Position numbers and translations under genes: made by a program
The notes under the pieces: model-generated
Seen by the model: only the letters and a program-made list of their open reading frames with translations
What the model was told of the DNA's origin: nothing
The model's database searches: none
Shown here: positions 5,169-5,397 of the stretch, one piece after another
Numbering within the stretch: the stretch's first letter is position 1
Layout: each line of letters starts with the position of its first letter
Origin: Nitrospirales bacterium
GTDB taxonomy: Bacteria; Nitrospirota; Nitrospiria; Nitrospirales; UBA8639
Reading direction: 5' to 3'
DNA length: 64,000 nucleotides
Assembly (NCBI GenBank): GCA_963555755.3
Contig: OY820905.2
Span: 1,888,001 to 1,952,000, forward strand

Positions 5169-5397
5169 AGGAAGGGTTGTAGGCCAACTCACCCGAGCTG
5201 CCTCTTGTCTGAAGAGGGCATAGCCAACGTAGGGAAAAGGCTGTACCCTCACGGTATTGTGAATCCTGGCATGATAGACCGTTTGCCCTATGGGAATCAG
5301 CCCGTGACTCAGCGCAGGTCGTCATGCCCTTTCTCTGATGAACCCGAACGGTTGCCTGGGACACCAAGCCCGTATCAACAAGGTTGGGAGACAGAGC
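5169..5397 (+). ncRNA. Predicted IS110 bridge RNA: 5' accessory structure, target-binding loop (~5268-5328), donor-binding loop (~5332-5396)
   Basis: Target-binding loop: stem ggcatgat/gtcatgcc plus gacc/ggtc encloses gtttgccct (5281-5289) and gactcag (5306-5312), matching target gcatgccCTgagtc. Donor-binding loop: stems ctctg/cagag and cccga/ttggg enclose acggttgc (5348-5355) and acaag (5378-5382), matching donor acggttgCTtgt. The 5' end is estimated from the -10 box. Confidence 0.85.

Follow-up and report, generated by a model that had tools for sequence, protein, structure and literature searches.

The question raised by this locus is how an IS110 element chooses its insertion site: does its left end specify a bridge RNA, and can the guides of that RNA be read directly from the DNA? 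In IS621, according to the available text of three reports, the element's circularised form makes a promoter, and the RNA binds two recombinase dimers (PMC11208160, PMC11208158, PMC13626964). An earlier note on the window (that is, the whole 64,000-nt stretch of a Nitrospirales genome analysed here) had read such an RNA from the letters of the DNA, and all four guide segments that it named, with their coordinates, are present in the window. We find, as judged from sequence, that an IS110 element of the IS621 type has its predicted two-loop bridge RNA region at 5268-5396, and by analogy with IS621 its guide region likely steers insertion. The two-loop architecture itself is already published.

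The recombinase carries both IS110 Pfam domains (PF01548 and PF02371) and scores above the cut-off of NCBIfam NF033542. Its best match among solved structures is ISCro4 (E 6e-37, 131 bits), with IS621 at E 5e-35 (125 bits), and its nearest named relatives are found in Nitrospirota genomes, at 81-90% identity. A DEDD RuvC-like domain and a Tnp domain with the catalytic serine are both present; D13, E57, D99, D102 and S237 align with D11, E60, D102, D105 and S241 of IS621, and Y258, M259 and L262 make up a hydrophobic wedge. The left end of the element is long and non-coding (5158-5398), and the right end is short, the recombinase gene reaching the right core. The element sits between a family 9 glycosyltransferase gene and argS (window 5103 and 6566, opposite orientation); the argS start is 30 bp away, and argS expression may be affected. 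A Shine-Dalgarno-like GGGAG of the recombinase gene (5386-5390) lies within the 3' strand of the donor-loop stem, so that folding or protein binding could limit translation of the recombinase.

Table 1. Features of the element and its target, in window coordinates.
Feature	Position	Strand	Basis
Host repeat left arm, ending in left target GCATGCC (5149-5155)	5133-5155	+	Junctions, empty copies
Left CT core	5156-5157	+	Common to left junction, right junction and 72 empty sites
Right donor TGTAT (5158-5162), overlapping predicted -10 box TATAAT (5160-5165)	5158-5165	+	Sequence
Predicted 5' leader, ~97 nt, typical of the subclade	5172-5267	+	Start inferred from -10 box
Target-binding loop, scaffold A5276/G5281 and A5299/G5304	5268-5328	+	Outer helix covariation; z -3.3
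7-nt left target guide; 6 Watson-Crick matches, core counted	5283-5289	+	Register and covariation
Right target guide, 7/7 to CTGAGTC	5306-5312	+	Match and covariation
Target-loop handshake bases C, G	5313-5314	+	Would pair after exchange: Watson-Crick to donor G6369, wobble to T6368
Donor-binding loop, scaffold A5341/G5346 and A5367/G5372	5333-5396	+	Alignment, scaffold, stem tests
Left donor guide, 8 nt	5348-5355	+	Identical to 6363-6370
Right donor guide, split 9-nt (5374-5375 and 5378-5382)	5374-5382	+	Predicted pairing with 5156-5162, 5376-5377 bulged, 7 bp in all
Donor-loop handshake bases G, U	5383-5384	+	Once exchange has occurred, G would pair with target C5155
IS110 recombinase, 324 aa	5399-6373	+	D13, E57, D99, D102, S237
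Predicted -35 box TTGACT	6351-6356	+	17 bp from TATAAT in circular form
Left donor ACGGTTG and right CT core	6363-6371	+	12 identical right junctions
Right target GAGTC (6372-6376) and host repeat right arm	6372-6492	+	>150 blastn matches in genome
Empty target site in window	40924-40937	-	

The ends of the element are fixed independently of the RNA. Twelve near-full copies of it and a single partial one are present in the genome, and the counts of the junctions, namely 12 for the left GCATGCC-CT-TGTAT, 12 for the right ACGGTTG-CT-GAGTC and 72 for the empty GCATGCC-CT-GAGTC, locate both CT cores. The left junction is identical in 12/12 near-full copies and the right junction at 12 places, comprising 11 near-full copies and the partial one; every intact junction falls at the same 14-bp site of a multi-copy repeat. 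When the filled junctions are compared with the 72 empty sites, CT stands at both ends of the element (5156-5157 and 6370-6371) without added target duplication. Contigs from two sequencing runs (X2 and X9) likewise contain the empty target.

Some copies are of interest in their own right. In the copy at 3222249 (minus strand), the left and right flanks belong to different repeat subfamilies; this combination occurs in 0/72 empty sites and possibly arose by rearrangement between two repeat copies. The copy at 343987 (minus strand) has a 6-nt deletion in the donor-loop stem that removes the equivalent of A5341, its protein being intact. In the most divergent copy (L235:1320-1983), another element has replaced the right end, and next to it comes a transposase-like frame of 189 aa. 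One donor-junction-like 12-mer in the genome was rejected, the sequence around it being unrelated.

The host repeat is ~145 bp long, with terminal inverted repeats (5133-5157 plus 6372-6492). The insertion site lies within a ~24-bp module of this repeat, CTGAG-N-CGAAG, which forms a small, imperfect hairpin with the cut site in its 5' arm. Among left ends of the main repeat subfamily, 31 are without the module, 55 carry it empty and 9 carry it filled. The motif occurs 263 times in the genome, compared with ~64 expected from base composition, and the module hosts 11 of the 39 distinct homologous elements described below; right targets starting with CTGAG are found in 15/39 homologues (in Nitrospirota and Dehalococcoidia, among others) and in 5/29 of a metagenome set. 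Three layers are thus nested at this locus, an IS110 element within a ~24-bp hairpin module within a ~120-bp inverted-repeat element. Further copies of the repeat lie near 25220-25339 and 40785-40952, and other copies have a second module or none. The host repeat has no match in E. coli genomes, and its module is not named in the accessible text of two REP papers (PMC6006769, PMC3733652), whose figures or supplements may hold it. Other frequent contexts of CTGAGTC were considered as second IS110 families and rejected, since they lie inside other repeated elements or represent the reverse strand of the right guide. Another repeated coding element, for example at 2160620-2164608, has 14 occurrences, three of them in tandem at ~2-kb spacing.

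Each guide can now be compared with the DNA that it would read. The right target guide GACTCAG is the reverse complement of 6370-6376, and the left donor guide ACGGTTGC at 5348-5355 is identical to 6363-6370, both as the earlier note had them. Its right donor guide was ACAAG (5378-5382); these five bases are indeed the reverse complement of 5156-5160, and they turn out to be part of a split 9-nt guide, in which A5374 and U5375 complement T5162 and A5161. Its left target guide, GTTTGCCCT at 5281-5289, does align with GCATGCCCT at 5149-5157, giving 7 identities, one U-G wobble and one mismatch; no site in the genome matches this 9-mer perfectly, and the guide is here shortened at its 5' end, as argued below. 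When the 241-nt left end is dinucleotide-shuffled 20,000 times, the four segments arise singly at rates of 0.113 (for the 6-mer TGCCCT, a stand-in for the 9-mer), 0.015, 0.002 and 0.25, and together in 0/20,000. Because this test leaves the after-the-fact choice of segments uncorrected, it is the permutation tests across homologues that carry weight.

From 107 loci with a recombinase match, we retained the 60 that had both ends and motif anchors. The 47 loci dropped were without a left end (15), a donor-loop anchor (8), a right end (4), a right core (3) or a left core (2), fell below 40% identity (14), or duplicated this genome's own element (1). Three more loci were dropped, and the 57 of the 107 that remained represent 39 distinct guide pairs. 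Only donor-side sequence was used to locate the cores, and core bases were excluded from the counts of guide matches. Compared with its own flank, the left target guide matches at 163/195 positions (5 bases, best of three registers) against 105.2 under permutation (sd 5.2, highest 129 in 20,000), and the right target guide at 180/195 (5 bases) against 85.6 (sd 6.6, highest 116 in 20,000); since the homologues are kin, these permutation results overstate independence. A metagenome set of 80 loci, yielding 29 new guide pairs with both flanks, gives 129/145 against 77.0 for the left guide and 132/145 against 64.2 for the right. The left donor guide matches its own left donor at 271/273 positions, compared with 247 when permuted, and its first 7 nt are identical in 37/39 homologues. 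On these sequence comparisons, we conclude that many distinct targets are tracked by their guides across homologues; the bridge-RNA assignment and the order of the four guides, both proposed in the earlier note, hold in the two sets.

Poor matches are seen for the left guide in L016 (2/5) and in L082 (1/5, where the anchor is probably misplaced), and for the right guide in L015 (2/5). The left end of L066 has apparently lost most of its target loop, yet its insertion site is of the CTGAG type, pointing to loss of the loop once the element was in place or to assistance from a second copy. When five genomes were searched with a pattern for short left guides, 18 matches came up; among the 14 loci inspected, L114 alone proved to be a further left end of the element, and the remaining inspected matches were not bridge-RNA loops or gave no output.

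The position of the left target guide depends upon the protein-binding scaffold. In the available text on IS621, each loop contains two conserved A, and five positions beyond each A stands a G bound by the protein; next come a linker base and the guide (PMC11208158). The corresponding four A/G pairs are invariant in 39/39 homologues, with the caveat that G5281, G5304, G5346 and partly A5276 served as search anchors, and the spacings from A to G and from G to guide equal those of IS621 except at the left target guide. There, the core T lies 8 bases after the scaffold G, compared with 10 in IS621 and 9 in most of the clade; the 9-base register is best in 30/39 homologues and in 24/29 metagenome pairs. 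In this majority register the first base after the scaffold G matches the target in only 10-12% of elements, and we therefore regard that base as a linker. The close subclade comprises seven sequence groups, and in every one of them CT falls in the short register, in which five match 4/4 bases before the core, at three different targets, while L127 matches 3/4 and L002 2/4. Given the linker base and these short-register matches, we take the left guide to be 5283-5289, with 6 Watson-Crick pairs. G5281 is not part of the guide, because it is an invariant scaffold G (39/39), matches the syn-G of IS621, and faces a target base that varies (G, G, C and C in four close elements).

At donor positions 13-14, 36/39 homologues have AT, and the right donor guide begins with AT in 35/39. 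The earlier note had also proposed that the bases following the right guides complement pre-core bases of the other partner, and for the first such base this is borne out: it is Watson-Crick to donor position 7 in 37/39 homologues for the target loop, and to target position 7 in 38/39 for the donor loop. The target-loop match reflects conservation rather than covariation, because both sides are nearly invariant. Target position 7 is other than C in 4 elements, and in three of these four, those with target T, the donor loop has a compensating A.

The stems, too, can be assessed across homologues. In a 39-row alignment, the 24 stem pairs are paired in 95% of cells, and 15 of them have changes on both sides, compared with 8.2 in shuffles (0/500 shuffles as high); slid controls are 31-47% paired. 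The outer 12-pair helix of the target loop is paired in 96.7% of cells, with changes on both sides at 9/12 pairs. Taken alone, the target loop exceeds its shuffles in stability (z -3.3), as does the donor loop, if weakly (z -1.3); the stability of the whole 5169-5397 fold is not above that of shuffles (z -0.11), and Rfam at gathering thresholds gives no match in the 64-kb window. The ten stem arms described in the earlier note all occur, as placed there, in the minimum-energy fold, but four of its outer pairs are without support from homologues: across the 39 homologues, 27% of cells are paired for A5290-U5305 and U5291-G5304, and 54% for G5346-U5385 and A5347-U5384. The closing stem of the donor loop (5333-5337/5392-5396) is predicted from the computed fold. 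Taken as a set, the 11 extra pairs show no excess over shuffles among the homologues. The guides themselves, which the note expected to be unpaired and to covary with their sites, are partly paired in the free-RNA fold of 5268-5396 (mean pairing probability 0.36-0.61), and a helix involving them, 5351-5354/5376-5379, is pairable in 89% of homologues; the expectation of covariation stands for the target guides and their flanks. The note's multi-hairpin 5' region (5169-5267) has no supported conserved structure. This leader is nearly absent in many homologues, the distance from core to donor loop ranging from 92 to 188 nt, and we rejected a conserved fold of it, the consensus fold being weak and its stability not above shuffles in 10/10 relatives (z -1.9 to +1.2).

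It is thus very probable, in our estimation, that this is an IS621-type bridge RNA element, guided by four segments in two loops together with handshake bases. This reading is based on the four guide matches, the fixed insertion site, guides that covary with their flanks, the A/G scaffold, and the catalytic residues. By analogy with IS621, circularisation would join TTGACT to TATAAT, and the RNA would start near 5172. A sigma-70-type promoter across the circle junction is indeed present as a sequence motif (TTGACT 6351-6356, 17 bp, TATAAT 5160-5165), and no such promoter is called in the linear element. Each loop would bind one recombinase dimer; the target loop would read ~11-12 bp (TGCC-CT-GAGTC) through its 7-nt left and 7-nt right guides, and the donor loop 14 bp. 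The top strands would be cut after CT and then exchanged, and the handshake bases, forming one pair before exchange and two plus a wobble after it, would favour insertion. Whether excision proceeds by cut-out or by single-strand copy-out is debated, according to the part of one preprint available (10.64898/2026.08.31.748434). In contigs from four sequencing runs no circle junction is listed, rare forms such as circles being apt to drop out of contigs. Contigs of two RNA libraries cover the element, a form of data from which start, strand and level are not readable and in which DNA may be present.

Other explanations must be weighed against the same observations. If the guide matches were due to chance and the protein alone picked the target, the shortness of the segments (a 5-mer arises in 25% of shuffles) and the failure of the whole region to fold better than shuffles would be unsurprising; however, this account is contradicted by covariation with flanks in two separate homologue sets and by the compensated stems, and we regard it as scarcely credible. 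Very unlikely, too, is the view that the element was formerly active and that its guide region is now an unexpressed relic. The missing circle junction in contigs of four runs would fit that view, as would one copy with the 6-nt donor-loop deletion, one without its right end and one partial copy, but rare forms such as circles drop out of contigs, five copies encode an identical protein, six others differ from the window copy at 3-8 positions, and no catalytic residue is lost.

A subtler alternative accepts that the guides pair, and holds that target choice depends equally on the hairpin of the target repeat, as in ISPpu10, or that a shorter fragment, produced by processing, does the work. In its favour, no more than 6 Watson-Crick pairs are formed by the left guide, the cut site falls in a hairpin arm, 11/39 homologues occupy the CTGAG-N-CGAAG module, and a target stem-loop gate is reported for ISPpu10 in the accessible part of its description (10.64898/2026.03.19.712850). 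Nevertheless, 72 of the 81 empty 11-bp matches in the genome are the same repeat site, so that the 12/12 insertions found there need no extra gate, and 28/39 homologues lie outside the module pattern, most of them still matching their own guides. We consider this alternative improbable, and retain the reading of an IS621-type element whose guides select the target.

A separate feature of this element is that its recombinase gene lacks a stop codon within the element: the TGA at 6371-6373 consists of the core T and two target bases. Target-completed stop codons occur in other insertion-sequence families; for IS110, we found none described in the accessible portions of the literature searched. 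Of 133 distinct right ends, 14 have a target-completed stop, in every case TGA, and these come mostly from the close subclade, along with four distant elements; two of the 14 are copies from this genome. The other class, which stops inside the element, comprises 118/133 right ends, 53 of which also have a stop triplet at the corresponding place. In the circle, the predicted frame would remain open for 81 codons through the RNA region, as far as a TGA that overlaps the ATG at 5399, and 3.5% of shuffles do likewise; the predicted read-through form would have 405 aa. This read-through frame is open in 7/9 relatives, which is weak evidence, given a chance of 0.32-0.65 per lineage of staying open; its substitutions are hardly biased towards third positions, and in L209 it is closed by an indel of one base. 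Selection on the frame is not established in these nine relatives. One could imagine that the Nitrospirota subclade, with its 7-nt left guide, is locked to CT-GA targets, because its recombinase gene lacks a stop of its own and correct insertion completes the TGA. This would couple guide specificity, the cross-phylum hairpin module and the recombinase's form into a switch between circular and integrated states, a proposal that we hold to be speculative and rather doubtful.

What the element adds is a recently multiplied bridge recombinase, distant from IS621, whose predicted RNA is fully readable and has a natural 7-nt right target guide and a short left one. It is a candidate for ortholog screens and a natural test of the minimum number of left-guide pairs, and it presents a small hairpin inside a larger repeat as an IS110 landing site. 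The published mechanism is unchanged by it; the target-completed stop codon would matter more if it were regulatory. Longer natural right guides are already in print, in the available text of PMC11208160, and a 7-nt left guide was not found in the accessible text of the bridge-RNA literature searched, supplements aside.

Among known systems, the IS1111-group seekRNA elements (PMC11187229, as far as its text is available) share with this element the recombinase family and, probably, the RNA-guided choice of target. Unlike it, they possess long right ends as well as sub-terminal inverted repeats of 7-17 bp; we rejected membership of that group because the predicted RNA is in the left end here and coding sequence occupies the right end as far as the core. 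ISPpu10 of Pseudomonas putida, in the accessible part of its description (10.64898/2026.03.19.712850), also inserts into a palindromic repeat. Its guides cover six left and five right positions outside the core, the left guide being tolerant far from the core and the right guide strict, a pattern seen in this clade as well; the left guide here is, in contrast, one base shorter, and the target hairpin is of another type. ISCro4 / IS622, the best structural match, follows the same loop and handshake logic, whereas 14 bases of each substrate are read there and ~11-12 target bases would be paired here, to judge from the available text (10.1101/2025.05.14.653916; PDB 9T56).

The closest parallel in layout is with IS621 (PMC11208160, PMC11208158; PDB 8WT6). 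The two elements share a left-end RNA (here predicted) with target and donor loops, the CT core, a dispersed-repeat target, four A/G scaffold pairs at the same spacing, an 8-nt left donor guide, a split 9-nt right donor guide, handshake bases, a junction promoter (here a motif), and the DEDD plus serine active site. They differ in that the left target guide is 7 nt here rather than 9 and the natural right target guide 7 nt rather than 4, and in the ~97-nt leader without a supported fold, the different target repeat, the target-completed stop and the distant protein (125 bits). Thus, at the level of sequence, every testable feature of the IS621 type is found in this element.
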